Assembly (NCBI GenBank): GCA_965206645.1
Contig: CBDBKE010000003.1
Location: 672,001 to 736,000 of the forward strand
Direction of reading: 5' to 3'
Length of the DNA: 64,000 nt
Origin: Terriglobia bacterium
GTDB lineage: Bacteria; Acidobacteriota; Terriglobia; JAJPHL01; JAPKYU01
Part shown: in pieces, positions 12,860 to 63,446 of the stretch
Numbering within the stretch: position 1 is the first letter of the stretch
Layout: each line of letters begins with the position of its first letter
Notes under the pieces: generated by a model
What the model was told of the DNA's origin: nothing
Seen by the model: the letters and a program-made list of their open reading frames with translations, nothing else
The model's database searches: none
Translations under genes and position numbers: made by a program

Positions 12860-13017
12860 CAGGGCCGGGCTGGTCAAAGAAAAACAAAAGCTTCCTTCGG
12901 CGAGCAAACAACCCGGATTTCCTTTTTGAAAACGCAGCGGCAACCTTCAGCTAACCTCCAACGTCAATATTGATACTGGTTGCAGCATCAATCGGAGCGT
13001 TTGGAGGCGTAAACCCA

Positions 13018-14346
13018 ATGGGTGAGAGCGAAAAACAGGGATTTCAGCTGTCGTTCAACCGATTTCTGCGAGTCGGGTTTCAGGGATCACGGGTGACTTC
13101 CAATGGTGGACTGATTCTGGTCCGGGAGTTGGATGAGCGTCTGGGATTCAGCGAACTCATTGACGAGCACCTGACCGATTCGCGGGCAAACAATGCTCGG
13201 TTTTCTTTCGCGGACTTGCTGCGGCAGTCGGTCTACAGTCGCCTAGCTGGATACGAGGATGTCAATGATGCCGAGCGGCTGTCGCAAGACCCGACCTTTC
13301 GGCCGATTGGTTCAGAGAAGACTTGGGAACGAGGCGCGGCGCTGACCTCCAGGTTGCAAACTTTCGAGACGGAGATGCTGGCGAAGGTGGAGAACTTCGT
13401 CGGGTTAGCCCGGATCAACCGGGAACTGATCGGAAAGGTCGAAGCCTTCCAGTGGCACTACCGAGCGGTGCTGGATATGGACTCAACCGAGATTCCGGTC
13501 TACGGGGAGCAGGAACAGAGCGCCTACAACGGACACTTCGAGTCCACTTGCTATCACCCGCTGCTTTTGTTCAATCGAGACGGCGACTGTCTGGCGGCCC
13601 AGCTCCGTCCGGGCAACGTGCACAGTGCCGAGGGTTGGGAGAAACTCCTGTTGCCCGAGATTGAGCGCCAGCAAAGAATGGGAAAAGAGATTGCGTTTCG
13701 GGCGGACGCGGCCTTTGCCAAGCCGGAGGTGTACGAGGCATTGGAGGAACGGGGTGTGAAGTACGCAATTCGCATCCCGGCCAACGATATTCTGCAGCGA
13801 GACATCGAAGAGCTACTGAAACGCCCCGTGGGAAGGCCCACCAAGAAACCGCTGGTCGAGCACAAGGGGTTCTTGTACCAGGCAGCCGGTTGGAAGACGG
13901 CTCGAAGAGTGGTGGCGAAAGTAGAGCATCATTCCGGGGAGTTGTTCCCGCGAGTGGGGTTCATTGTAACGAATCTGACGCTGCCGAATCGGGCGGTGGT
14001 GCGGTTCTATAACAAGCGCGGCACCGCAGAACAGTGGATCAAGGAAGGCAAGCAGGCGGTGAAGATGACGCGGCTCAGTTGCCACAAGTTCCGATCTAAC
14101 GAGGTACGGCTTTGGCTGACGATCATCGCCTACAACCTGGGCAACCTGTGGCGACGGCTAGTGCTGCCACAGAGAATCGAGAAATGGTCCTTGACGAGCC
14201 TCCAGCAGCGGCTGGTGAAAACCGGAGGACGGCTCCTAAAACACTCACGGTACTACTGGCTCCTGCTGGCCGAGGGCCATTTGACCCGACGGCTGTTTGC
14301 CAGCATGCTGGGGCGGATCGATGGATTGGCACTCCCGTCGGGATAG
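13018..14346 (+). CDS. IS1380-family transposase
   Basis: GYEDVND, LDMDST, RADAAF, YNKRGTAEQWIKEGK. Confidence 0.95.
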   Translation: MGESEKQGFQLSFNRFLRVGFQGSRVTSNGGLILVRELDERLGFSELIDEHLTDSRANNARFSFADLLRQSVYSRLAGYEDVNDAERLSQDPTFRPIGSEKTWERGAALTSRLQTFETEMLAKVENFVGLARINRELIGKVEAFQWHYRAVLDMDSTEIPVYGEQEQSAYNGHFESTCYHPLLLFNRDGDCLAAQLRPGNVHSAEGWEKLLLPEIERQQRMGKEIAFRADAAFAKPEVYEALEERGVKYAIRIPANDILQRDIEELLKRPVGRPTKKPLVEHKGFLYQAAGWKTARRVVAKVEHHSGELFPRVGFIVTNLTLPNRAVVRFYNKRGTAEQWIKEGKQAVKMTRLSCHKFRSNEVRLWLTIIAYNLGNLWRRLVLPQRIEKWSLTSLQQRLVKTGGRLLKHSRYYWLLLAEGHLTRRLFASMLGRIDGLALPSG

Positions 14347-14414: not shown

Positions 14415-15643
14415 TGCCAGCTCAACCGGTCGATGCAACACAAGCGTTAAATCGTTCTGCCGGAGTTTCAAACTCCAGCGTCTGACGGGGCCGTTCGTTC
14501 AGCTGACGTGCCACCTTGTTCAGATGCGCCTGAGAGTGCACCGACAAGTCCGTTCCCTTGGGGAAGTACTGTCGGAGTAGACCGTTGGTGTTCTCATTCG
14601 AACCGCGCTGCCATGGACTCTGAGGATCACAGAAGTATACGTCAATGTCGGTCGCCAACGTGAACCGTCGATGCTCGGCGAGCTCCAGGCCTCGATCCCA
14701 AGTCAGAGATTTGTACAGTTCCGTCGGCAGCTTCTTCGCGTGCTTGATGAGCGCCGACACGACCGTCTCCGTTTTCTTGCTGGATACTTTCGTAAGCATC
14801 ACGTAGCGCGTATGACGTTCGACCAGAGTCGCAATGTGGCTGTTCTTCGATCCGGACAGCAGATCGCCTTCCCAATGACCGGGCACGGCACGATCTTCGA
14901 CCGAGGCCGGGCGCTCACGGATCGATACGATGTCGGTGATCTGTCCTCGTCCATGGCCTCTCAGACTTGCATGTCGGGATCGACGAATCGTCCGCTTTGA
15001 CCGCAGATGCTGCATCAGCTCTGCCTTCAGCGCACCGCGGGCTTGAACAAACAGGCTGCGGTAGATGGTCTCGTGAGACACGTGATAGGACGGATCCTTC
15101 GGATAGGCTCGTTTCAGCCAGCTGGCGATCTGCTCAGGCGACCAGTTTATGCTGAGCTTTCTGGCCACTACCCGTCGTAGTTGTGGATGCTTGACCAGCT
15201 GACACCGCTTCGGCCGGCGGGCCCTCTCCCCGGCTTGCTCATCGGCCTCCGCTGCTCGATAGTCATTATCGCCGCCATTCCGCCGAATCTCCCGGCTCAC
15301 CGTCGATGGTGAGCGACCCAGCAACCCGGCGATGGATCGTATCGATTGATGTGCCGCAATGCCTCGAGAGATCTCTTCGCGCTCCGACAACGTCAGTGCC
15401 CAACATGAACGGCGTGGTGGCCGAGGACGGATGCCTCCGTACGGAGCAAGCTGATGGTAAACAGACGATGGCTGCTTACAAAACACTCGTCCAATCGACT
15501 TGAGCGACTCCCCTCGTTTCCACCGATCCCACACCTCCTCCAGTTCCGCCAGCGTGTAACCGCGACGAGCTCTTTGCTTCATCCGCATACACTCCACCTC
15601 CTCCTTTCAAGGCAAAGTGTTGCGTCGATGGGTTGAGACCACC
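14415..15643 (-). mobile_element. IS30-family element
   Basis: Imperfect IRs (CTCAACCGGTCGATGCAACAC / GTGTTGCGTCGATGGGTTGAG) with 2-bp CT duplication defined by the intact IS1380 copy. Confidence 0.92.
14422..15597 (-). CDS. IS30-family transposase
   Basis: HTH (GRSPSTVSREIRRN), GHWEGD, LTWDRG, PWQRGSNENTNGLLRQYFPKG. Confidence 0.95.
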   Translation of the reverse strand: MECMRMKQRARRGYTLAELEEVWDRWKRGESLKSIGRVFCKQPSSVYHQLAPYGGIRPRPPRRSCWALTLSEREEISRGIAAHQSIRSIAGLLGRSPSTVSREIRRNGGDNDYRAAEADEQAGERARRPKRCQLVKHPQLRRVVARKLSINWSPEQIASWLKRAYPKDPSYHVSHETIYRSLFVQARGALKAELMQHLRSKRTIRRSRHASLRGHGRGQITDIVSIRERPASVEDRAVPGHWEGDLLSGSKNSHIATLVERHTRYVMLTKVSSKKTETVVSALIKHAKKLPTELYKSLTWDRGLELAEHRRFTLATDIDVYFCDPQSPWQRGSNENTNGLLRQYFPKGTDLSVHSQAHLNKVARQLNERPRQTLEFETPAERFNACVASTG

Positions 15644-21684: not shown

Positions 21685-22964
21685 TGACCTGCCGGCTTTC
21701 TTCGGACCACCGATTACTGGAGAACAGCGCCAGTCGGCATGGTTAAGTCGCTCTCGTGTTCTTCTTGGTCAGCGTGAGCCGGCATCGCCGGCGAGCGCCC
21801 ACCGTCATCCGAGCCAGCACGGAGCTGCGCTTTGAACTCGGCTGGCGTCAGATAGCCAAGGCTCGAGTGCGGTCGCACGTCGTTGTAGTGCCGTCGCCAT
21901 TGCTCGATCCCCACCTTCGCGTCCACGCGGTTCCGAAACCACTGCAGGCTCAGATACTCGTCGCGGAACTTCCCGTTGAACGATTCGTCGGTCGCATTCT
22001 GCCACGGCTTGCCCGGCTCGATGAGCGCGGTTTCGATCTGCGCCTGGAGCAGCCACCGGAGAATCGCACCCGCGACAAACTCGGGGCCGTTGTCGGACCG
22101 GAGGTAACGTGGGGCTCCGTGGACGCTCACGAGCTGCGTGAGCACCTCGATAACGCGCCCGGACCGAATGCCGCCGGCCACGTCGATCGCGAGTGACTCG
22201 CGGGTCCATTCGTCGACGACGGTGAGGCACTTGAGCGTCTGCCCATTCGCGCAGGTGTCGAACACGAAGTTGTACGCCCAGACGTGATTGACCGCAGTGG
22301 CGGGCACCGGGCGGGGCCGGCTCAGGGCGACCCGGCGCCGCGGCCGCCGCCGAGGCACCTGCAACCCCGCCTGGCGCCAGAGGCGATGGGTCCGGTCCGT
22401 GCTCATCGTGTGCCCTTCGCGTTTTAGGAAAATCCGAATCCGGCGATAGCCGTACCGCGGATACTGCGCCGCCAGACGACGCATCGCGGCCAGCGCCGGG
22501 GCATCCCGGTCGACCAGCCGCGACTGGTAGCCCAGCGTGGACCGTGCGACGGAGAGCAAGGCGCACGCGCGGCGACCCGACAGACCGCGTGCACGTGCAT
22601 ACGCGACCTGCGGCCGGCGCACGCGTGCGCCTACCATTTTTTTCGGGTGATCTCCTTGAGCACGTCGATCTCCAGATCTCGATCGGCCACCATCTTTTCC
22701 AGCCGGCCGTTCTCCTGCTCGAGCTGCCGCAGCCGCTTCACATCGGCGGGCTCCAACGTGCCGAAGTGTTTCCGCCAGGCGTAGAGCGTCTGGGCGCTGA
22801 CGCCGTTCTTTTTGGCCACCTCCGGAACGGGCCGCTGATCGGCCTCGCGGAGGATCGTCACCATCTGCTCTTCGGTAAACCGGGTCTTCTTCATGGCTCC
22901 CTCGTTTCTCCGAGGGCGCCATTCTCTCAGGCTTCAGCTGGTCCGGAAATCGCCAGGCAGGTCA
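21685..22964 (-). mobile_element. IS3-family element (IS407-like)
   Basis: TGACCTGCC...GGCAGGTCA IRs, 4-bp TSD AGGC. Confidence 0.93.
21714..22894 (-). CDS. IS3 transposase OrfAB with -1 frameshift (orfA 22631-22894)
   Basis: MKKTRFTEEQ HTH; A7 slippery run at orfA end; rve domain (RSDNGPEF, PGKPWQN, ESFNGKFRDE). Confidence 0.9.
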
Positions 22965-23357: not shown

Positions 23358-25016
23358 CCGGAATTTCCATTTTGAGCTTCCCCTTCACCCGAAAACCTAT
23401 GCCTCTTACCCTGTCGTGTCAATCGCAAATCGCCCGGGCCTCTTTGAGGTGGTAGTGCGGCACATTTTGGCTGTTCTTCGGAGTCGCTGTGCGGGTTTCG
23501 CCTGCCCAGCCTGCCTCGCCGCTGACACTTGTCCGGCCCGACCACTTCTGAGCACCTAAAATTACCCTCTCTCCTGGGTCGCTAGCCGTCTGGCAGCGGC
23601 AGTGCCGAGATCGTTCGCAGCATGCTGCTGAACAGCCTCCGGCTCAAGTGCCCTTCGGCCAGCAAAAGCCAGTAATATCGCGCATGTTTCACCAGCCGTC
23701 CGCCCGTTTTCACCAGCCGCTGCTGCAAACTCGTCAGCGACCAGTTGTTGATCCTCTTCGGTAGCACCAGCCGCCGCCACAGGTTTCCCAAGTTGTAGGC
23801 GATCAGGCTCAGCCATAGGCGCACCTCGTTCGACCGAAACCGATGGCAACTCAGCCGGGTCATCTTTACCGCCTGCTTGCCTTCCTTGATCCATTGCTCT
23901 GCGGTGCCCCGCTTGTTGTAGAACCGGACCACCGCCCGGCTGTCGGTCTCCAGATTGGTGACGATGAACCCCACGCGAGGGAACAGTTCGCCAAAGTGGA
24001 ACTCCACCTTCGCCACCACCCGCCGCGCCTTTTTCCAACTGGCTGCCTGGTAGAGAAAGCTCTTGTACCAGACCACCGGCTTGTGGCTCGGTCGCCCCAC
24101 TGACCGCGTCAACAACTCCGCGATGTCCCTCTCCAGACTGTCGTTGGCCGGGATGCGAATCGCATACTTCACGTCCCGCTCCTCCAGTGCGTCGTAGATC
24201 TCCGGCTTGGCGAAGGCGGCGTCGGCGCGAAACACCACTTCCTTGCCCAGCTTCTGCTGCCGTTCGATCTCTGGCAGGAGAAGTTCTTCCCAATCCTCGG
24301 CGCTGTGCACGTTGCCGGGTCGCAGCTTGGCCGCCAGACAGTCACCCTCGCGACTGAACAGCAACAACGGGTGATAGCAACTCGACTCGAAATGCCCGTT
24401 GTAGGCGCTCTGCTCCTGTTCGCCGTAGACCGGGATCTCGGTGCTGTCCATGTCCAGCACCACCCGGCGCGGCGCATCCATAGCTTCCGCCCTGGCGATC
24501 AAATCCCGGTTGATCGCTGCCAAACCAGCAAGGTTCTCGTCTTGCGTCAGCAGTTCTGTCTCGAACGACTGTAACCGGGAAGTCAGGGCTGCGCCACGTT
24601 CCCAGATCTTCTCCGAACCGATCAGCCGGAACGTCGGATCTTGGGAAAGCCGCTCGGCGTCGTTGACGTCTTCGTATCCTGCCAAGCGGCTGTAGATGGA
24701 CTGCCGCAGCAAGTCAGCGAGGGGCAACCGGGTGTTCTTCCCCCGAGAGTCGATCAAGTGCTGTTCGATAAGTTCGCCGAACCCCAAACGTTCGTCCAAC
24801 TCGCGCACCACAATCAGACCGCCGTCGGAAGTGATTCGCGATCCCTGAAATGTGACCCGCAGAAACCGGTTGAATGACAGTTGAAACGCCTGTTTTTGGC
24901 TCTCACCCATTCGGTGTACACCTCCGGAAGGCAATGTTGATGCTGGAACCCGCATCAATACTGACGTTGGAGTCATTCAGAAGGTTGCCGCCGATAGTTC
25001 ATAAAGGAAATCCGGG
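23358..25016 (-). mobile_element. IS1380-family element (diverged from copies 1 and 2)
   Basis: CCGGAATTTCC / GGAAATCCGGG ends, 5-bp TSD AGTAG. Confidence 0.93.
23582..24910 (-). CDS. IS1380-family transposase
   Basis: Same motifs as 13018-14346, diverged sequence. Confidence 0.95.
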   Translation of the reverse strand: MGESQKQAFQLSFNRFLRVTFQGSRITSDGGLIVVRELDERLGFGELIEQHLIDSRGKNTRLPLADLLRQSIYSRLAGYEDVNDAERLSQDPTFRLIGSEKIWERGAALTSRLQSFETELLTQDENLAGLAAINRDLIARAEAMDAPRRVVLDMDSTEIPVYGEQEQSAYNGHFESSCYHPLLLFSREGDCLAAKLRPGNVHSAEDWEELLLPEIERQQKLGKEVVFRADAAFAKPEIYDALEERDVKYAIRIPANDSLERDIAELLTRSVGRPSHKPVVWYKSFLYQAASWKKARRVVAKVEFHFGELFPRVGFIVTNLETDSRAVVRFYNKRGTAEQWIKEGKQAVKMTRLSCHRFRSNEVRLWLSLIAYNLGNLWRRLVLPKRINNWSLTSLQQRLVKTGGRLVKHARYYWLLLAEGHLSRRLFSSMLRTISALPLPDG

Positions 25017-25164: not shown

Positions 25165-25929
25165 TCAGGCGCGAGGCTTTCCGGAACGCCTTCGTTTGCT
25201 GTCCTTGAGCCGGTAACTTTCCCCGTTCATCTCCAGGATGTGGACATGGTGGGTGAGACGATCCAGCAGGGCTCCGGTCAGCCGCTCCGATCCGAAGGCC
25301 TCCGTCCATTCGTTGAACGGCAGGTTGCTGGTCACCACGGTGGCGCTGCGTTCGTAGCGCCGGCTGAAGACCTCAAACAGCAACTCCGCCCCAGTCTTGG
25401 ATAGCGGCACGAAACCCAGCTCGTCAATGATCAACAGCTCGAAACTGGAGAGCATCTTCTGGAACCGCATCAGGCGCCGCTCGTCCTTGGCCTCGATCAG
25501 CTCATGCGCCAGGGAGGCCGCCGTAGTGAACCGGACCCGGAACCCTTTCTGACAGGCGGCCAGTCCCAGCGCCAACACAATGTGGGTTTTTCCCGTGCCC
25601 GAGTTCCCTAAAGCCAGGATGTTCTCCTTGCGTTCGATGAACTCGCCTCGGGCCAGCTCGAGCACCAAGGCCTTATTCAGCGACGGAAGGGCCAGGAAAT
25701 CGAAACTGTCGAGGCTCTTCACCACGTCGAACCTGGCTTGGTGAATGCGCCGCTCGGTGGCGCGCCGTTCCCGGTCCAGCAGCTCCAGCTCCGTCAACCG
25801 CAGCAGGTAGCGCGGGAAGTCCACGCCCTCGGCAGCGCACTGCTGCGCCACCTTGTCGTACTCACGCAAAAAGGTGGGTAATTGCAGGGCCTTCAGATGG
25901 TGTTCCAGCAACACCTGGGGCGTGTCCAT
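25165..25929 (-). CDS. istB: IS21 helper ATPase IstB
   Basis: GNSGTGKTH Walker A, LIIDELG, LLDRLTHH, GESYR. Confidence 0.95.
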   Translation of the reverse strand: MDTPQVLLEHHLKALQLPTFLREYDKVAQQCAAEGVDFPRYLLRLTELELLDRERRATERRIHQARFDVVKSLDSFDFLALPSLNKALVLELARGEFIERKENILALGNSGTGKTHIVLALGLAACQKGFRVRFTTAASLAHELIEAKDERRLMRFQKMLSSFELLIIDELGFVPLSKTGAELLFEVFSRRYERSATVVTSNLPFNEWTEAFGSERLTGALLDRLTHHVHILEMNGESYRLKDSKRRRSGKPRA

Positions 25930-27428
25930 CAGCAGACTCCTTCCCGGAGCAGGGTCAGATAGTCGGCGGCGGCTGTGGTGGCCACCTGCGTCGCCGGCAG
26001 GTGCGGATAGTGCTCCAGGTCCAGCCGCGCCGGCCGCTGCTCGATCCGGCCCAGCAGCAGATGCTTGACCGCGTCAGACCAGATCGCCCCCAGCCGCAAG
26101 GCGTCCTCGACGGCCAGCGACACTTCCGTCCAACGGAACGTCTCCAGCCGTCGCAGGACCTGCACATACTCCCGCTTGCCCTTCTTGCCTAACCGCGCCT
26201 CCATCAGCCGCCGCAGTTGCGCGAAGCCTTCCGGCAACTCCCAGCCGGCCAGGGGGGCGGCCTGGTTCAACGCGTTCGGCTTCTGCTCCAGCAGCGCCAG
26301 ATAGTGCAACGGATCGAAGATCATCTCTTCCCGTTCCTAGCTCCGGACATGGCGTGCGATCACTTCGCTCGCTGCACAGATCACCACTTCCTCGACGAAT
26401 CCCTTCACCAGCACCTCCCGGTGCCCCCAAGCCACCGGCACCGAATAGTCGTTGGATCGATACCGCACCAGCGACAGTGACGTCACCCGTGTGGTCCGTT
26501 TGTCGCAGGCCTCATAGGGCGTCGCCGGCAGGGGCAGCAGCCTCTGTTGATCCTTCGCGAACCGCTCGCCGATCGTCTCTTGATGTCCTCGCAGACGCCG
26601 CTCTCGCCGCCGGGTGCACTGTTCCCGCAGCTTCGCGTGCAACTCCTCCCAGCTGGCACACCGCGGCACCGGCACCAGGAAGTTCCGCCGCACGTAACCC
26701 ACTAGTCCTTCCACTTTCCCTTTGTCATTGCCCTTGCCCGGTCGTCCGAACTTCTCCGCAAACAGGTAGTGACTCTGCAGTTCGGAGAACGCCCGCGTCT
26801 TGTTCCGTGTTCCGTCACCCAGGATCTGCCTCACCGCCAGCTTGGTGTTGTCGTACAGGATCGTGCGAGGCACTCCGCCGAAGTAGCCGAACGCCTGGTT
26901 GTGCCCTTCTAAGAACGCTTCGGTCGTCTCAGCCGGAAACGCCATCACGAAGCAGTCGTCCGATTGCGGCAGCTCCATCACGAAATAGTGCGCCTTGCGC
27001 TCCACCCCGCCGATCACCACTTGCGCTTCGCCAAAGTCGGCCTGGGCCTCCCCCGGTGGATGCTCTAGCGGCACGAACATCTCCCGCTGGCTCAGCTTCC
27101 GCAGCCGCACGTAGTCCTTCACGATGGTGTAGCCGCCCGGGAATCCGTGCTCCTCCCGCAGCCGCTCAAAAACCCGCTTGGCCGTGTGGCGTTGCTTCTT
27201 GCTCTGGGCCTTATCTTGCTCCAGGATCTGGTCGATGATCCCCACCCAGGCATCCAGCTTCGGCCGCCGCGCCGGCTGCTGCCGCCGATAGCCCGGAGGG
27301 ATCGAGTACCGCAGCATCTTGCGGACCGTCTCGCGGGCTAGCCCGAACTGCCGCGCCGCCTCCCGTTCACTGATCCCCTCAGCCTGAACTGCTCGTCGAA
27401 CACGCGCATAGAGTTCCACTGTGTGCAC
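25929..27428 (-). pseudogene. istA: IS21 transposase IstA with in-frame TAG at 26337-26339
   Basis: AQADFG, YDN, KGKVE; same frame continues S*EREEMIFDPLHY. Confidence 0.9.
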
Positions 27429-27517
27429 ACCTCCGGTGTTTCACAAAACACATCAGAATCACAATGTTTCCTCTTTATCCCCTTGACATACTTACAGGGG
27501 GCTGCTAGATTGGCCGG

Positions 27518-28081: not shown

Positions 28082-28939
28082 TTAGAGGCTCGCCACCAGA
28101 TCGGAGAAAATCAAAGCGGGCTGCCGCCTCCGATTGTAGCGATACTCAAACTCCTTCACGTACTTCCAAAGGTGTGTCCGGGAAACGTGGACGTGCGTCC
28201 CGCGAATCGAGTTCTTCAACCGGGACCAAAAGCCCTCGACGGAGTTGACGTGGCAGTTGCCTCTCACATATTCACCCGCGCTATGGTTGACAACGCCATG
28301 CTTGTATCCGGCAGCAGGAAGGCGAAGATAGGAGCGGAGATCGTCTGTATGAACAGTCGAACCAGCCGCCACGTTCTCACGGATCAAGGGCTCCAGGGTG
28401 CGCCGCTTCACGTTCGGAACCACCTTGGTCATAATGTCGCCCCCGCGCTTTGCCATGCCGAAAACAACGGTCTTATTCTTCCGGTATCCGTGGCCCCAGC
28501 CCCGAACGCGGCCTCCGATGTAGGTTTCATCCGCTTCAATCAGGCCTCCCAGGGCAGCCTCGCCGTCAACATCGGCCATGTACTTTCGTATTTCGTGCGC
28601 CATGCGCCACGCCGTTTTGTAAGTAACCTTGAGCTGGCGTTGGAGTTCTCTGGCCGCAACCCCGTGGCGGGAAGTGGAAAACAGGAAGATCGCAAAGAAC
28701 CACTTGTGAAGGGCAATGCGCGACCGCTCCATAGGTGTTCCCACGCAAGGGTAGATGTGGTGTCCACAATACTGGCAGACGTAGTTTCTCTGGTTCTTCA
28801 TGCGGTGAAACTTGCTGTTGCGCTTGCACTTAGGACATTCCAGGCGAGTGCCGCCGTAGCGCGAAACCATGATTTTATGAAGGCAGGCCTCATCATTCGG
28901 AAACTGCTTTTGAAACTCGTAAAAACTTGTCATTCCCAA
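28082..28939 (-). CDS. IS1595-family transposase
   Basis: CPKC..CQYC Zn ribbon, EADETYIGG, VHTDD, VNSVEGFWS, EFEYRYNRR. Confidence 0.95.
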   Translation of the reverse strand: MGMTSFYEFQKQFPNDEACLHKIMVSRYGGTRLECPKCKRNSKFHRMKNQRNYVCQYCGHHIYPCVGTPMERSRIALHKWFFAIFLFSTSRHGVAARELQRQLKVTYKTAWRMAHEIRKYMADVDGEAALGGLIEADETYIGGRVRGWGHGYRKNKTVVFGMAKRGGDIMTKVVPNVKRRTLEPLIRENVAAGSTVHTDDLRSYLRLPAAGYKHGVVNHSAGEYVRGNCHVNSVEGFWSRLKNSIRGTHVHVSRTHLWKYVKEFEYRYNRRRQPALIFSDLVASL

Positions 28940-29088
28940 CCTCCTGCGTACATTCTACAGGAAGTCTATAAGTATGTCAAGGGGATAGTTACGCAATGTT
29001 TGATGGAATCGAACTGCGCTGGTCTAATTTTGCACCGCCAGAAACCGCCGCTTACGCGGCGCTCCCTGGTCTATTATTGCTCCGGCGT

Positions 29089-42521: not shown

Positions 42522-43889
42522 ATGCTGGCTAACCGGTTGTTGGTAGTTGGAGGACAGGGTGCAGGACTGAGTGCGGCCAGCCGGGCGCGCCGGCTGGACT
42601 CGCAGCTGCATATCACCGTCTTGGAACAAGGGCACCATATCTCCTACAGCGCCTGTGGCTTGGCCTATTTACTCAGCGGACAGGTGCGGCGAGCCGAGGA
42701 TCTGCTGGTGTACTCGGCCGAATTTTTTCGGGAGCAGCGCAACATCGAGGTCCTGGTTGGCATGCGGGTGGTTGAGATCGAGCCGGGACAGCGGAGGGTA
42801 CGCGCCCTGGCCGTCGAGACCGGGCAAGAACACCTGTTCCCTTACGACCGGTTGGTTCTGGCAACGGGCACCCGGCCAGACTGGCCCTCCATTCCCGGCA
42901 TGGATTTACCCGGCGTCTTCCAAGGGAACAACCTGGCAGGGACGCTGGCCCTACAGGCCTTCCTGGAAACCGGCCAGCGGCCTCGTCGGGCCGTCGTCCT
43001 GGGCGGTGGCTATATCGGGCTGGAGTACGCCGAGGCGCTGCGCCAGCGAGGTCTGCACGTTGTGGTGCTCCACTGCAGCAGCGAGCTATTGGAGGGATTC
43101 GATCCGGAAATCACCGAGCTGGTGGAACAGAGGCTATTGCAACACGGCGTGGAAGTGTTCAAGGGCACTCCGGCTACCGCGATCCTGGGCCAGGGGCGCC
43201 TGCAGCAGGTGCTCTCTGCCGCCGGGCGGCACGAGGCGGACCTGGCGTTAGTGGCCACCGGCGTTGTGCCACGTTCCGAGGTGGCCCTGGCCGCCGGCCT
43301 GGCCACCGGGGTGAGGGGTGCAATCGTTGTGGATGAGCGGATGCAAACCAGCCTACCCGGCGTCTATGCCGCCGGCGATTGTGCTCATACGGTTCACCTG
43401 GTAACCGGGCGTCCTGTCTACATCCCCTTGGGCACGACCGCAAACAAACAGGGCCGCGTCGCGGGCGAGAATGCCGCCGGTGGCAACGCGCGATTTGCAG
43501 GCATCGTAGGCACCACTGTCACCCGGGTGTTCGAACTGGAGTGCGGCCGCACTGGTTTGTCGGAACCCGAAGCGCGCGCCGGCGGGTTCCGCGTGGTCAC
43601 CGCCGTCATCGAGCACGGGAGCCGTGCCCACTACTTTGGAGCCAAGCAGATGCGGGTGAAGCTGCTGGCTGACCGCGCCAGTGGACGCCTCCTAGGGGGG
43701 CAGCTGGTGGGCGAGGAAGGGGTGGCCAAGCGGGTCGACGTGGTGGCCACGGCCCTGCATGCGCGTATGAATATTGAGCAACTGGCTGGCCTGGACTTGA
43801 GTTATGCGCCGCCGTTCGCCCCGGTTTGGGACCCGCTTCTGATTGCCGCAAATGCTCTGGGCCGGAAACTTCGTGGCGGTCGTGACTGA
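42522..43889 (+). CDS. CoA-disulfide reductase / NADH oxidase family flavoprotein
   Basis: GGQGAG, SYSACG active Cys, GGGYIGLE, DLSYAPPF. Confidence 0.92.
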   Translation: MLANRLLVVGGQGAGLSAASRARRLDSQLHITVLEQGHHISYSACGLAYLLSGQVRRAEDLLVYSAEFFREQRNIEVLVGMRVVEIEPGQRRVRALAVETGQEHLFPYDRLVLATGTRPDWPSIPGMDLPGVFQGNNLAGTLALQAFLETGQRPRRAVVLGGGYIGLEYAEALRQRGLHVVVLHCSSELLEGFDPEITELVEQRLLQHGVEVFKGTPATAILGQGRLQQVLSAAGRHEADLALVATGVVPRSEVALAAGLATGVRGAIVVDERMQTSLPGVYAAGDCAHTVHLVTGRPVYIPLGTTANKQGRVAGENAAGGNARFAGIVGTTVTRVFELECGRTGLSEPEARAGGFRVVTAVIEHGSRAHYFGAKQMRVKLLADRASGRLLGGQLVGEEGVAKRVDVVATALHARMNIEQLAGLDLSYAPPFAPVWDPLLIAANALGRKLRGGRD

Positions 43890-44010
43890 CAGTGGCTTTC
43901 GTGGCTGGCAGTGGCCTGCGCTGACACTGGCCAGCTAGGATAAGCGCCGGCGCAAGTTGACACCTCATGCTCGGCAGTTTATATCCACACTGATAGGGAG
44001 GAAGCGACGT

Positions 44011-44526
44011 ATGAGTGCTTTGGAGGCAGAGTCGCGGGCGGCGGACTTTCTTCTGCCGGGCCTGGACAACAAGACATATTCGTTGGCGGAATCGTTGAAA
44101 GAGGGGCCGGTGCTGGCCGCTTTCTTCAAGTCAAGTTGTCCGGTCTGCCAACTCACCTTTCCATTCCTGGAACGGTTTCAGCGCCATTTCCGCGAAACCA
44201 AGGCGCACATCTGGGCTGTCAGCCAGGATGAGCCGGAGGAGGCGCTAACGTTCGCCACCGAATACGGGCTCAGCATGCCGGTGCTCCTGGAGAATGTAGA
44301 ACACAACTATCCGGTATCAAATGCCTACGGCCTGACTCACGTCCCCACGGTCTTCCTGATCGGTCAGGGCGGTGACATCCTGCAGACCTCGGTCGGTTTC
44401 GTACGCAAAGAGCTGGTCCAGATGGGCCGTAGGCTGGAGATGCTCACCGGCAGAAAGGGTTTCGTGCCTTTTGGGGAAGAGGACGAGGTCCCGGAATGGC
44501 AGTCCGGTTGAAGATCCAAGAACTAG
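44011..44526 (+). CDS. TlpA/AhpC-TSA thioredoxin-fold protein, probable C-terminal Sec (TGA 44509-44511)
   Basis: CPVC; ...EWQSG-TGA-RSKN-TAG; GCCCCC-GTC-GGGGGT hairpin 20 nt after TGA; selC adjacent. Confidence 0.8.
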
Positions 44527-44542
44527 CCCCCGTCGGGGGTTT

Positions 44543-44713
44543 CTAATCCCGGTCGACTTCCCGCAGCAGGTTTTTCTTGTGCTTGGGGGTCTTTCGTTTC
44601 CGCGTATCCGGAATGGGGCGGGAGGGAGGAGGCGTGCCCAGGCGCTCGCGCGCGATCGCCCGAACTTCTTTGCCAGAGCTGAACCGGCGGCGACGCCTAC
44701 CAGAACGAACCAT
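44543..44713 (-). CDS. Small basic hypothetical protein
   Basis: KEVRAIARERLGTPPPSRPIP...KHKK. Confidence 0.65.
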   Translation of the reverse strand: MVRSGRRRRRFSSGKEVRAIARERLGTPPPSRPIPDTRKRKTPKHKKNLLREVDRD

Positions 44714-44850
44714 CGGGTGATCCCAACATGAGGTGATCCCAACATGAACCGAGCGGTACGACAACTGTTTGCCCTTACCTGATCTTCGCGAGCCCTCGCC
44801 GAGGCTCACTCAATCGGCAATCAGCCCATCGGCAATGACTCAATCAGAGA

Positions 44851-44945
44851 TGGCGGAAGGTTATGGGAATCGAACCCATCGCTGCTCGTGAGAAACAGCC
44901 ACCGGCTTTGAAGGCCGGGCGAGTCACCAGACCCGATTACCTTCC
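44851..44945 (-). tRNA. selC: tRNA-Sec (TCA)
   Basis: 95 nt, GGAAGG start, CTTCAAA anticodon loop, long variable arm, GTTCGATTC, GCCA end. Confidence 0.96.
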
Positions 44946-48204: not shown

Positions 48205-48750
<546 letters not shown>

Positions 48751-61798: not shown

Positions 61799-63446
61799 CC
61801 CGGATTTCCTTTTTGAAAACGCAGCGGCAACCTTCAGCTAACCTCCAACGTCAATATTGATACTGGTTGCAGCATCAATCGGAGCGTTCGGAGGCGTAAA
61901 CCCAATGGGTGAGAGCGGAAAACAGGGATTTCAGCTGTCGTTCAACCGATTTCTGCGAGTCGGATTTCAGGGATCACGGGTGACTTCCAATGGTGGACTG
62001 ATTCTGGTCCGGGAGTTGGATGAGCGTCTGGGATTCAGCGAACTCATTGACGAGCACCTGACCGATTCGCGGGCAAACAATGCTCGGTTTTCTTTCGCGG
62101 ACTTGCTGCGGCAGTCGGTCTACAGTCGCCTAGCTGGATACGAGGATGTAAATGATACCGAGCGGCTGTCGCAAGACCCGACCTTTCGGCTGATTGGTTC
62201 AGAGAAGACTTGGGAACGAGGCGCGGCGCTGACCTCCAGGTTGCAAACTTTCGAGACGGAGATGCTGGCGAAGGTGGAGAACTTCGTCGGGTTAGCCCGG
62301 ATCAACCGGGAACTGATCGGAAAGGTCGAAGCCTTCCAGTGGCACTACCGAGCGGTGCTGGATATGGACTCAACCGAGATTCCGGTCTACGGGGAGCAGG
62401 AACAGAGCGCCTACAACGGGCACTTCGAGTCCACTTGCTATCACCCGCTGCTTTTGTTCAATCGAGACGGCGACTGTCTGGCGGCCCAGCTGCGTCCGGG
62501 CAACGTGCACAGTGCCGAGGGTTGGGAGAAACTCCTGTTACCCGAGATTGAGCGCCAGCAAAGAATGGGAAAAGAGATTGCGTTTCGGGCGGACGCGGCC
62601 TTTGCCAAGCCGGAGGTGTACGAGGCATTGGAGGAACGGGGTGTGAAGTACGCAATTCGCATCCCGGCCAACGATATTCTGCAGCGAGACATCGAAGAGC
62701 TACTGAAACGCCCCGTGGGAAGGCCCACCAAGAAACCGCTGGTCGAGTACAAGGGGTTCTTGTACCAGGCAGCCGGTTGGAAGACGGCTCGAAGGGTGGT
62801 GGCGAAAGTAGAGCATCATTCCGGGGAGTTGTTCCCGCGAGTGGGGTTCATTGTAACGAATCTGACGCTGCCGAATCGGGCGGTGGTGCGATTCTATAAC
62901 AAGCGCGGCACCGCAGAACAGTGGATCAAGGAAGGCAAGCAGGCGGTGAAGATGACGCGGCTCAGTTGCCACAAGTTCCGATCTAACGAGGTACGGCTTT
63001 GGCTGACGATCATCGCCTACAACCTGGGCAACCTGTGGCGACGGCTAGTGCTGCCACAGAGAATCGAGAAATGGTCCTTGACGAGCCTCCAGCAGCGGCT
63101 GGTGAAAACCGGAGGACGGCTCCTAAAACACTCACGGTACTACTGGCTCCTGCTGGCCGAGGGCCATTTGACCCGACGGCTGTTTGCCAGCATGCTGGGG
63201 CGGATCGATGGATTGGCACTCCCGTCGGGATAGCCTGGGCTACGGCACACAAGAAAACGATGCCGCTATCCCCCAGGTATGGAGAGTTGTCTGAAAAAGC
63301 TGGGTTTGGATGCTGATTGGACGGTTTTAGGGGACCCCGAAAGGGACGCTCGGAGCCGATGGTCCTCTCGGAGAAAACATTGTACTCGCTGGGACGCAGA
63401 TGCGTGTATATTTCCAATCGCCGGAAGGCCAAAAAGGAAATTCCGG
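61799..63446 (+). mobile_element. IS1380-family element copy 2 (intact)
   Basis: CCCGGATTTCCTTTTT / AAAAAGGAAATTCCGG; flanks TTTAA / TTTAC. Confidence 0.94.
61905..63233 (+). CDS. IS1380-family transposase
   Basis: Differs from copy 1 at four visible residues. Confidence 0.95.
   Translation: MGESGKQGFQLSFNRFLRVGFQGSRVTSNGGLILVRELDERLGFSELIDEHLTDSRANNARFSFADLLRQSVYSRLAGYEDVNDTERLSQDPTFRLIGSEKTWERGAALTSRLQTFETEMLAKVENFVGLARINRELIGKVEAFQWHYRAVLDMDSTEIPVYGEQEQSAYNGHFESTCYHPLLLFNRDGDCLAAQLRPGNVHSAEGWEKLLLPEIERQQRMGKEIAFRADAAFAKPEVYEALEERGVKYAIRIPANDILQRDIEELLKRPVGRPTKKPLVEYKGFLYQAAGWKTARRVVAKVEHHSGELFPRVGFIVTNLTLPNRAVVRFYNKRGTAEQWIKEGKQAVKMTRLSCHKFRSNEVRLWLTIIAYNLGNLWRRLVLPQRIEKWSLTSLQQRLVKTGGRLLKHSRYYWLLLAEGHLTRRLFASMLGRIDGLALPSG

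Follow-up and report, generated by a model that had tools for sequence, protein, structure and literature searches.

The gene at positions 44011 to 44526 (+) of the window (the whole 64,000-nucleotide stretch of DNA that was analysed) is predicted to encode a selenoprotein of 171 amino acids with a ResA/TlpA-like thioredoxin fold, whose selenocysteine (Sec167) would stand 121 residues past Cys46 of an intact CxxC active site. Taken as a whole, the results are probably explained by a cytoplasmic ResA/TlpA-fold selenoprotein in which the docked Sec tail serves as a tethered, glutathione-like selenol. A Shine-Dalgarno-like GGAGG (43997 to 44001, +) is found in the sequence 9 nt 5' of the ATG, and the CPVC active site (Cys43 and Cys46; 44137 to 44148, +) is evident from both the sequence and the alignment. 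The frame meets a UGA codon at 44509 to 44511 (+), which we infer to specify Sec167 from the conservation of the TGA, the Cys-containing homologues and the phylogenetic tree, and it continues through a four-residue tail, RSKN (44512 to 44523, +; G/S-S-K-N in the family, according to the loci and the tree), to the true stop codon (44524 to 44526, +), which is TAG in the window and varies among relatives. The sequence details of the preliminary description (CPVC, SG-UGA-RSKN-UAG, a downstream hairpin, and a spacing of 20 nt from the UGA to the G of the loop) were all reproduced from the letters of the window.

Conservation of the UGA codon and the tail

A genome scan uncovered at least 590 relatives of the gene, and the best 80, all titled Acidobacteriota, were analysed; these loci are mutually related, two of them (L017 and L019) belong to one genome, and the closest is a Terriglobia record with 95 to 97% DNA identity to the window. 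In every one of these best 80 of at least 590 loci, exactly four codons separate the TGA from the next stop. Among 379 ordinary ORFs of these loci that end in TGA, a stop five codons past the TGA is present in 17. The tails of the best 80 read GSKN (44), SSKN (27), GSRN (4), GAKN (3), DSKN (1) and GSLN (1), and the final stop is TAG in 35, TGA in 35 and TAA in 10. On a FastTree tree, the first TGA underwent no change and the final stop 13 changes. Tail codons +1, +2, +3 and +4 showed 34, 25, 21 and 13 changes in DNA and 18, 3, 4 and 0 in protein, respectively, so that codons +2 to +4 sum to 59 DNA changes versus 7 protein changes; for comparison, the 3'-UTR triplets of these loci underwent 63 to 65 and 56 to 58 changes. 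G166, which precedes the UGA, is invariant in the alignment. The preliminary description had named conservation past the TGA as a check on its reading, and the four codons prove to be constrained at the protein level in the best 80 loci. The available text of Haft and Gwadz (bioRxiv 2022.07.06.499078) sets at least ten examples with a universal TGA at the site as a criterion; here the TGA is present in 80 of the 80 best loci.

The gene ends in a second UGA, 15 nt nearer to the hairpin, in 35 of the best 80 of at least 590 loci (for example, L004, 870 to 887, and L006, 10496 to 10513). Because the final stop in these loci is also UGA, a single 3'-UTR SECIS must have two UGA codons read differently, the one some 20 to 22 nt upstream of it as Sec and the nearer one as stop.

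Of the 120 best protein homologues listed, 116 have as their last residue the Gly that precedes the window UGA, and the other four resemble fragments or frameshifts. Cys occupies the UGA column in 8 of 149 new 50%-cluster representatives recovered in a search made without Cys-form seeds, with tails such as GCASKN, GCGSKN and GCSSKN. A set of 384 database homologues contains 328 Gly-ended, 25 Cys-tailed (24 by pattern and P0350 by eye) and 31 other proteins, and its share of Cys forms is inflated by the inclusion of a search seeded with such forms. The Cys tails are mostly G-C-x-[SA]-K-N; Ca. Tectomicrobia is the named source of one, and the Cys forms need seven changes on a 212-row FastTree tree whose deep support is weak. 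The Cys at the UGA column that the preliminary description had proposed to look for in homologue C-termini is thus present in 25 of the 384 database proteins, and both this and the coding-type conservation after the UGA are criteria by which bacterial selenoproteins are recognized; the outcome that the preliminary description had named as refuting its reading did not arise. A constrained tail before a free final stop, with Cys in some homologues, is the mark of a translated tail that has a Sec/Cys pair, and the claim of a C-terminal Sec is supported by the universal TGA, the conserved tail, the Cys homologues and the downstream hairpin.

A hairpin at and beyond the stop codon

The bSECIS model, as given in the available part of PMC13188914, comprises a loop of 3 to 9 nt with a G in position 1 or 2, located 16 to 37 nt from the UGA, and a stem of 4 to 16 bp with an energy of -7.5 kcal/mol or lower. 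The window hairpin in the 3' UTR (44525 to 44541, +; core CCCCC at 44527 to 44531 and GGGGG at 44535 to 44539) conforms to this model, with a GUC loop (44532 to 44534) whose G is 20 nt from the UGA, 7 bp and an energy of -10.9. By itself it is near chance, since its 29-nt piece gave a z score of -1.92, which 6 of 200 shuffles matched, and longer pieces of 52, 81 and 92 nt gave -0.29, +0.62 and -0.79, respectively. It is the relatives that carry the case.

A bSECIS-type hairpin was found in 79 of the best 80 of at least 590 loci versus 26 of 379 control ORFs, and in 78 of the 80 versus 11 of 379 when a stricter test was applied; the test region, 25 nt from the stop codon, was picked after inspecting the family, and the controls were mechanical TGA-ended ORFs from the same loci subjected to the same test. 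In all but one of the 81 sequences (the best 80 loci and the window), the loop starts 19 to 22 nt past the UGA, and the commonest loop is GGUC. When a five-pair stem was examined in an unfitted alignment, 85% of the positions were paired versus 78% after shuffling (0 of 500 shuffles), and double-sided changes numbered 21 versus 5.8 (0 of 500 shuffles), but pairs with double changes were no more numerous than in the shuffles (3 versus 2.7; 304 of 500). Sliding the stem by -1 yielded 28 double-change cells versus 21, yet only 50% pairing. Unrelated stems occur at the same place, including CCCGC/GCGGG, CCCCC/GGGGG, GTTCC/GGAAC and GCTCC/GGAGC. Conservation of the sequence stops at about +30 after the UGA in the best 80 loci, and T is found in at most 17 of the 80 at each position from +31 to +38, so no U-tract is present. 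A scan of the window with Rfam detected tRNA-Sec only and no match to a SECIS model.

As first described, the hairpin consisted of AGAA (44519 to 44522), CTA, GCCCCC (44526 to 44531), GTC (44532 to 44534), GGGGGT (44535 to 44540) and TTCT (44541 to 44544). Its lower stem, AGAA/UUCU, can form in 2 of 81 sequences only, the window and the near-identical relative L001 from the best 80 of at least 590, and it was ruled out as a part of the SECIS. Since the lower stem is unconserved, the conserved SECIS core lies wholly at or past the stop codon. The earlier placement of a SECIS mostly in the 3' UTR is retained with respect to the hairpin past the stop, but the lower stem is lost from it and the core is shifted entirely to the stop codon and beyond. 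A second hairpin at 44556 to 44592 (+) appears 3' of the SECIS in the 92-nt fold and is followed by a U-rich stretch; it is possibly the terminator of the selenoprotein gene, and its sequence is not conserved across the loci.

Genomic context

The genome carries selC: a tRNA-Sec with a UCA anticodon (44851 to 44945, -; detected by ARAGORN and by Rfam RF01852 at 78.5 bits) is the only tRNA in the window and lies 325 nt from the gene on the opposite strand, in convergent orientation. A second gene with a UGA and a SECIS-type hairpin encodes an AhpC/TSA peroxiredoxin (48205 to 48750, -), with the UGA at 48526 to 48528 in the context T-G-G-UGA of the known TxxU type. Its G-loop hairpin (-10 kcal/mol) lies 23 nt downstream, the N-terminus of the protein resembles a signal peptide, and the product is a probable second selenoprotein of the window. 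We count the tRNA-Sec and this second gene as support for the Sec reading. The selA, selB and selD genes were not among the top NCBIfam matches of the 51 frames of at least 250 aa in the 64-kb window.

The tRNA-Sec gene is adjacent in 2 of the best 80 of at least 590 loci and 9 kb away in one more (L001, 3679 to 3773; L003, 10713 to 10813; L079, 19546 to 19644), and it is convergent in the window and in both adjacent cases; a conserved operon with tRNA-Sec is therefore not general. A CoA-disulfide-reductase/NADH-oxidase-like flavoprotein, below the NCBIfam cutoffs, is encoded directly upstream in the window (42522 to 43889, +). Its family has Sec forms according to the deep-Sep data available in PMC12013277, and the window protein has Cys at the corresponding residue. 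A conserved operon with this reductase was likewise rejected, as such a gene is found in 3 of the best 80 loci. No conserved redox partner was found among the neighbours in these 80 loci, of which 22 cluster representatives were scanned, the common ones being mutY-like, HIT, M28 peptidase and DPBB genes.

Two fusion proteins were encountered among the homologues, both of them CxxS members of the family: P0256 follows a GrdB-related domain (TIGR01918, 158 bits), and P0388, with an internal GCASKN, has an unnamed fusion partner of about 350 aa, the nearest named clusters of which carry UGSC at 16%. These fusions hint at links with other selenium reductase systems. Short tandem duplications lie between the gene and the tRNA-Sec gene, at 44711 to 44747 (16 nt; an exact 16-nt pair is seen by eye at 44716 to 44747) and 44806 to 44835 (15 nt). 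Insertion sequences are dense in the window, with transposases of IS1380 (12955 to 14346, 23582 to 24976 and 61842 to 63233), IS30 (14422 to 15606), IS3 (21714 to 22961) and IS1595 (28082 to 28954) and an IS21 element (istAB; 25165 to 27440); a plasmid search gave no match at E 1e-15.

Fold of the protein and position of the tail

The protein matches the Pfam families AhpC-TSA (57 bits) and Redoxin (52 bits). Its fold resembles that of ResA, with a TM-score of 0.71 by query length (about 0.7 across some 140 residues), and the structure search gave Z scores of about 18 to 20 to ResA/DsbE-type chains. The TlpA-like thioredoxin fold, the CxxC and the Pro loop that are expected of the ResA/TlpA/CcmG group are all present. 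The N-terminal signal or anchor is not, as there is no hydrophobic N-terminal segment and the fold match begins at residues 1 to 8; this was judged from the sequence and the start of the match, and suggests that the protein is cytoplasmic. It scored 61 bits with the NCBIfam ResA model versus a cutoff of 170, none of 11 models reached its cutoff, and 88 family members match generic models only. Some sources label the protein a peroxiredoxin; the PxxxT/SxxC(U) peroxidatic motif is absent, and the active site reads AAFFKSSCPVC. The Glutaredoxin Pfam model gave no match at E 0.01, and the ESM Atlas contained only generic 'peroxiredoxin family' clusters of Acidobacteriota, of 160 to 182 aa. Sequence and fold searches of the PDB led to ResA/DsbE-type cores, most rows of which stop by about residue 150, with 4 of 50 extending to residues 162 to 171.

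Cys43 is invariant and Cys46 is present in at least 90% of 98 aligned sequences; Ser replaces Cys46 (CxxS) in 4 of 327 aligned Gly-ended homologues. Lys40 (44128 to 44130, +), three residues before the nucleophilic Cys in a glutaredoxin-like position, is kept in 322 of 327 Gly-ended and 23 of 24 Cys-tail homologues. In the His110-Val111-Pro112 loop (44338 to 44346, +), at the cis-Pro position of the fold, Val111 and Pro112 are found in 321 and 326 of the 327 Gly-ended homologues, respectively.

An AlphaFold model was obtained with the 98-row alignment and Cys in place of Sec. The pLDDT was 96 at residues 161 to 170, and its mean was 96.7 for the full-length protein and 96.5 for a 166-aa form. 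The C-terminal arm (residues 147 to 166; 44449 to 44508, +), with the pattern F-x-x-x-D/E-x-V-P-x-x-x-x-G, is modelled as a 20-residue loop without helices. Four short bridges, at 110-111, 130-131, 163-164 and 167-168, were seen in the full-length model; in the model lacking residues 167 to 171, the 110-111 bridge was lost and those at 130-131 and 163-164 remained. This pattern suggests that residues 163-164 bridge to 130-131 and that Sec167-Arg168 would pair through the backbone with His110-Val111, directly before Pro112. The docking was read indirectly from the secondary-structure strings of the models, and AlphaFold may bias a free Cys toward the CxxC. When the complex of the core (residues 1 to 145) and tail (146 to 175) of P0132, a natural Cys homologue, was predicted, the median score was 0.24 against a mark of 0.32 (runs of 0.24, 0.60 and 0.07), and this prediction counts neither for nor against docking. 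The preliminary description had likened the C-terminus to the flexible Sec tail of animal thioredoxin reductase; the models argue against this analogy, as the tail is predicted to be ordered (pLDDT 96) and docked in the groove of its own domain. The accompanying proposal that Sec is a resolving or shuttle residue fits the modelled docking.

Proposed mechanism and alternatives

We propose that SelB, bound to the G-loop hairpin that closely follows the stop codon, would insert Sec at the UGA and thereby add U-x-S-K-N to the protein; that the insertion is directed by a 3'-UTR SECIS appears, from the comparisons of loci and homologues, very likely. The C-terminal arm would then fold back over its own domain and bring Sec167 into the substrate groove, with a backbone pairing to Val111, the residue that precedes cis-Pro112. 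Docking in cis is judged likely from the models, and Sec167, so paired, would adjoin Cys43 and occupy the spot that the cysteine of glutathione takes in glutaredoxins. Sec could next exchange with Cys43 through a Cys43-Sec167 selenenylsulfide that would be resolved by Cys46 or an external thiol, so that two electrons pass between the CxxC and a substrate or reductant outside the protein; the direction from CxxC to Sec to substrate (peroxide, disulfide or mixed disulfide) is favoured. In glutaredoxins, according to the available text of PMC11724882, the valine of the VP loop is hydrogen-bonded through its backbone to the cysteine residue of the GSH ligand. Both GSH and the catalytic Cys are activated there by a Lys that shortly precedes the active site (PMC5382279, in the part used here; the -3 spacing of this Lys is our reading of the residue numbering in that paper). 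The invariance of Cys43, the occasional loss of Cys46 and the retention of G-C-A-S-K-N in one CxxS fusion support the proposed relay. A wider and more tentative possibility is a class of enzymes, widespread in Acidobacteriota, in which a genetically encoded G-U-G/S-S-K-N-COOH arm would sit as a built-in 'selenoglutathione' in the glutathione site of a thioredoxin fold; leaky insertion of Sec would then yield open-groove and Sec-armed forms according to the selenium supply.

The Sec could instead act in trans, as part of a mobile arm that carries electrons to a partner enzyme or second subunit, much as the tail of animal TrxR serves thioredoxin, with the cis-docked state being a resting state only. 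The 20-residue, helix-free loop of the modelled arm would allow this, as would the rare fusions to GrdB-related and unnamed domains and the CoA-disulfide-reductase-like gene that precedes the selenoprotein gene in the window and has counterparts in 3 of the best 80 loci. We consider this unlikely, given that the tail is modelled as ordered on its own domain and that its Sec lacks an adjoining Cys, unlike the GCUG of PMC10840350 (available text). In addition, the fused domains gave no tblastn match in the best 80 of at least 590 loci or in the window, and each fusion is represented by one unnamed protein cluster.

Bacterial Sec insertion competes with termination, and the 166-aa form is modelled as well folded as the full-length form. 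One could therefore envisage a selenium-dependent switch, in which termination at the UGA yields a CxxC reductase with an open groove and readthrough yields a form with the groove plugged by the Sec tail. Cys versions cannot switch, yet they carry the same tail and arise at seven places on the tree, as expected of a catalytic chalcogen, which leaves the switch with a small chance of being correct.

Conserved cis-Pro residues disfavour metal binding in thioredoxin folds. The cis-Pro is conserved here, and this speaks against a reading in which Cys43, Cys46 and Sec167, clustered according to the models, form a three-chalcogen site that, instead of relaying electrons, would bind or process an electrophile or a soft metal or metalloid (Hg, As or Cu). 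Metal handling was proposed by Haft and Gwadz for CU-motif selenoproteins (bioRxiv 2022.07.06.499078, available text), but the present family is without a CU motif, and none of the 22 scanned neighbour-cluster representatives is a metal-resistance gene. We regard such a site as very unlikely.

It is hardly credible that the UGA is a real stop followed by a non-coding tail and by a terminator of the gene or of the convergent tRNA-Sec gene: the window hairpin alone is unremarkable, it has a terminator-like score on the minus strand and TGA is the commonest stop of the control ORFs (388 of 961), but the changes in the four codons are mostly synonymous, the second stop varies freely, the Cys homologues share the tail, the U-tract is lacking and tRNA-Sec adjoins the gene in only 2 of the best 80 loci. 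In a few bacteria, unusual tRNAs are reported to bring about SECIS-linked insertion of Cys, and Cys homologues are known here, but readthrough of the UGA as Cys or another residue is equally hard to credit when the sole tRNA of the window is a canonical tRNA-Sec with UCA and TGA closes 36 of 70 mechanical ORFs of the window as an ordinary stop.

Implications

With the Sec-armed relay as the preferred reading, hundreds of database entries are apparently short by five residues and lack a probable catalytic residue, the scale being given by the 328 of 384 database homologues that end in Gly and the at least 590 genome relatives. If confirmed, the family would be a large addition to the selenoproteins of a major phylum of soil bacteria; its Sec would stand outside the CxxC, where none was seen among the catalogued redoxin-fold selenoproteins compared here in the available sources. 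It would also show that prediction methods overlook a Sec that stands only a few codons before the stop with its SECIS in the 3' UTR. Small, soluble and found in nature with either Cys or Sec, the enzyme would lend itself to testing the contribution of Sec to thiol-disulfide relays, and the natural two-UGA constructs offer a test of the positional rule of SelB, in which Sec and stop are distinguished by distance.

Comparison with known systems

The fold, the CxxC and the Pro loop are held in common with ResA/TlpA/CcmG(DsbE) proteins (PF00578/PF08534; PDB 1st9, 2f9s, 3gl3 and 3kcm). The window family differs from them in being without an N-terminal signal or membrane anchor and in having FFKxxC in place of WAxWC, and the 25-residue C-terminal arm of the window protein lies outside the top-ranked matches, which mostly end by about residue 150.

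The known redoxin-fold selenoproteins include Prx of the TxxU type, Trx, Grx and Prx-like proteins of the UxxC type, UGC-containing TlpA/Prx-like proteins (cf. NF041054), Redoxin UxxC, Prx-SUH and SelL-related proteins, and they share with the window family the thioredoxin fold, a single UGA-encoded Sec and Cys/Sec homologue pairs. In the catalogued members (PMC13188914, Table 1), Sec replaces an active-site Cys, whereas in the window family the CxxC is intact and Sec would be a third, C-terminal chalcogen. The deep-Sep representatives compared (PMC12013277, available part) likewise have Sec in the active-site motif, the UGC-containing TlpA/Prx-like proteins included, and the window protein has none of the UxxC, CxxU, TxxU or UGC arrangements. 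Its matches to NF041054, NF040769 and NF045827 were far below cutoff or absent. Table 1 of the 119-family 2026 catalogue (PMC13188914) has no redoxin-fold entry with a motif matching the G-U-x-S-K-N tail, no matching family was found in NCBIfam, and the available portions of the GOS paper and its supplements (PMC2398784) contain none of four family motifs. The literature covered, to which Haft & Tolstoy 2025, Deng et al. 2026 and BSepDB Table S2 (PMC13326102) do not belong, holds, in the parts available, no description of the family and no match to the tail motif.

A SECIS beyond a bacterial stop codon is not new. In the available text of bioRxiv 2022.07.06.499078, the UGA-UAG of SaoC precedes a 7-bp stem capped by a GGU loop, and SaoC is the precedent, while KCU-star ends in CU; SaoC and KCU-star/DUF466 resemble the window family in having Sec at or near the C-terminus and a SECIS past the stop. 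They are other protein families with terminal CU motifs, in contrast to the tail G-U-x-S-K-N, and Sec is found in 3 of 52 SaoC members compared with a TGA in 80 of the best 80 of at least 590 loci here. The window protein gave no match to NF040734 or NF033934 at E 0.01 and does not have their terminal Cys-Sec motif.

In animal thioredoxin reductase, the Sec of the C-terminal GCUG extension undergoes exchange with a CxxC (PMC10840350, available text), as is proposed here. That enzyme is a flavoenzyme with a flexible Cys-Sec pair acting in trans, whereas a lone Sec on a thioredoxin-fold protein is predicted to dock in cis in the present case. Class I glutaredoxin with GSH has in common with the window protein the Lys at -3, the CPxC and the x-V-P loop, which in the models would pair with the incoming chalcogen. 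The larger ResA-type fold sets the window protein apart, as does a 'glutathione' that would be its own G-U-G/S tail, and the likeness is meant as a working analogy, not as membership. Set against these systems, the gene apparently represents a real, unlisted bacterial selenoprotein family in which Sec is the third chalcogen, borne on the C-terminal arm of an intact CxxC fold.
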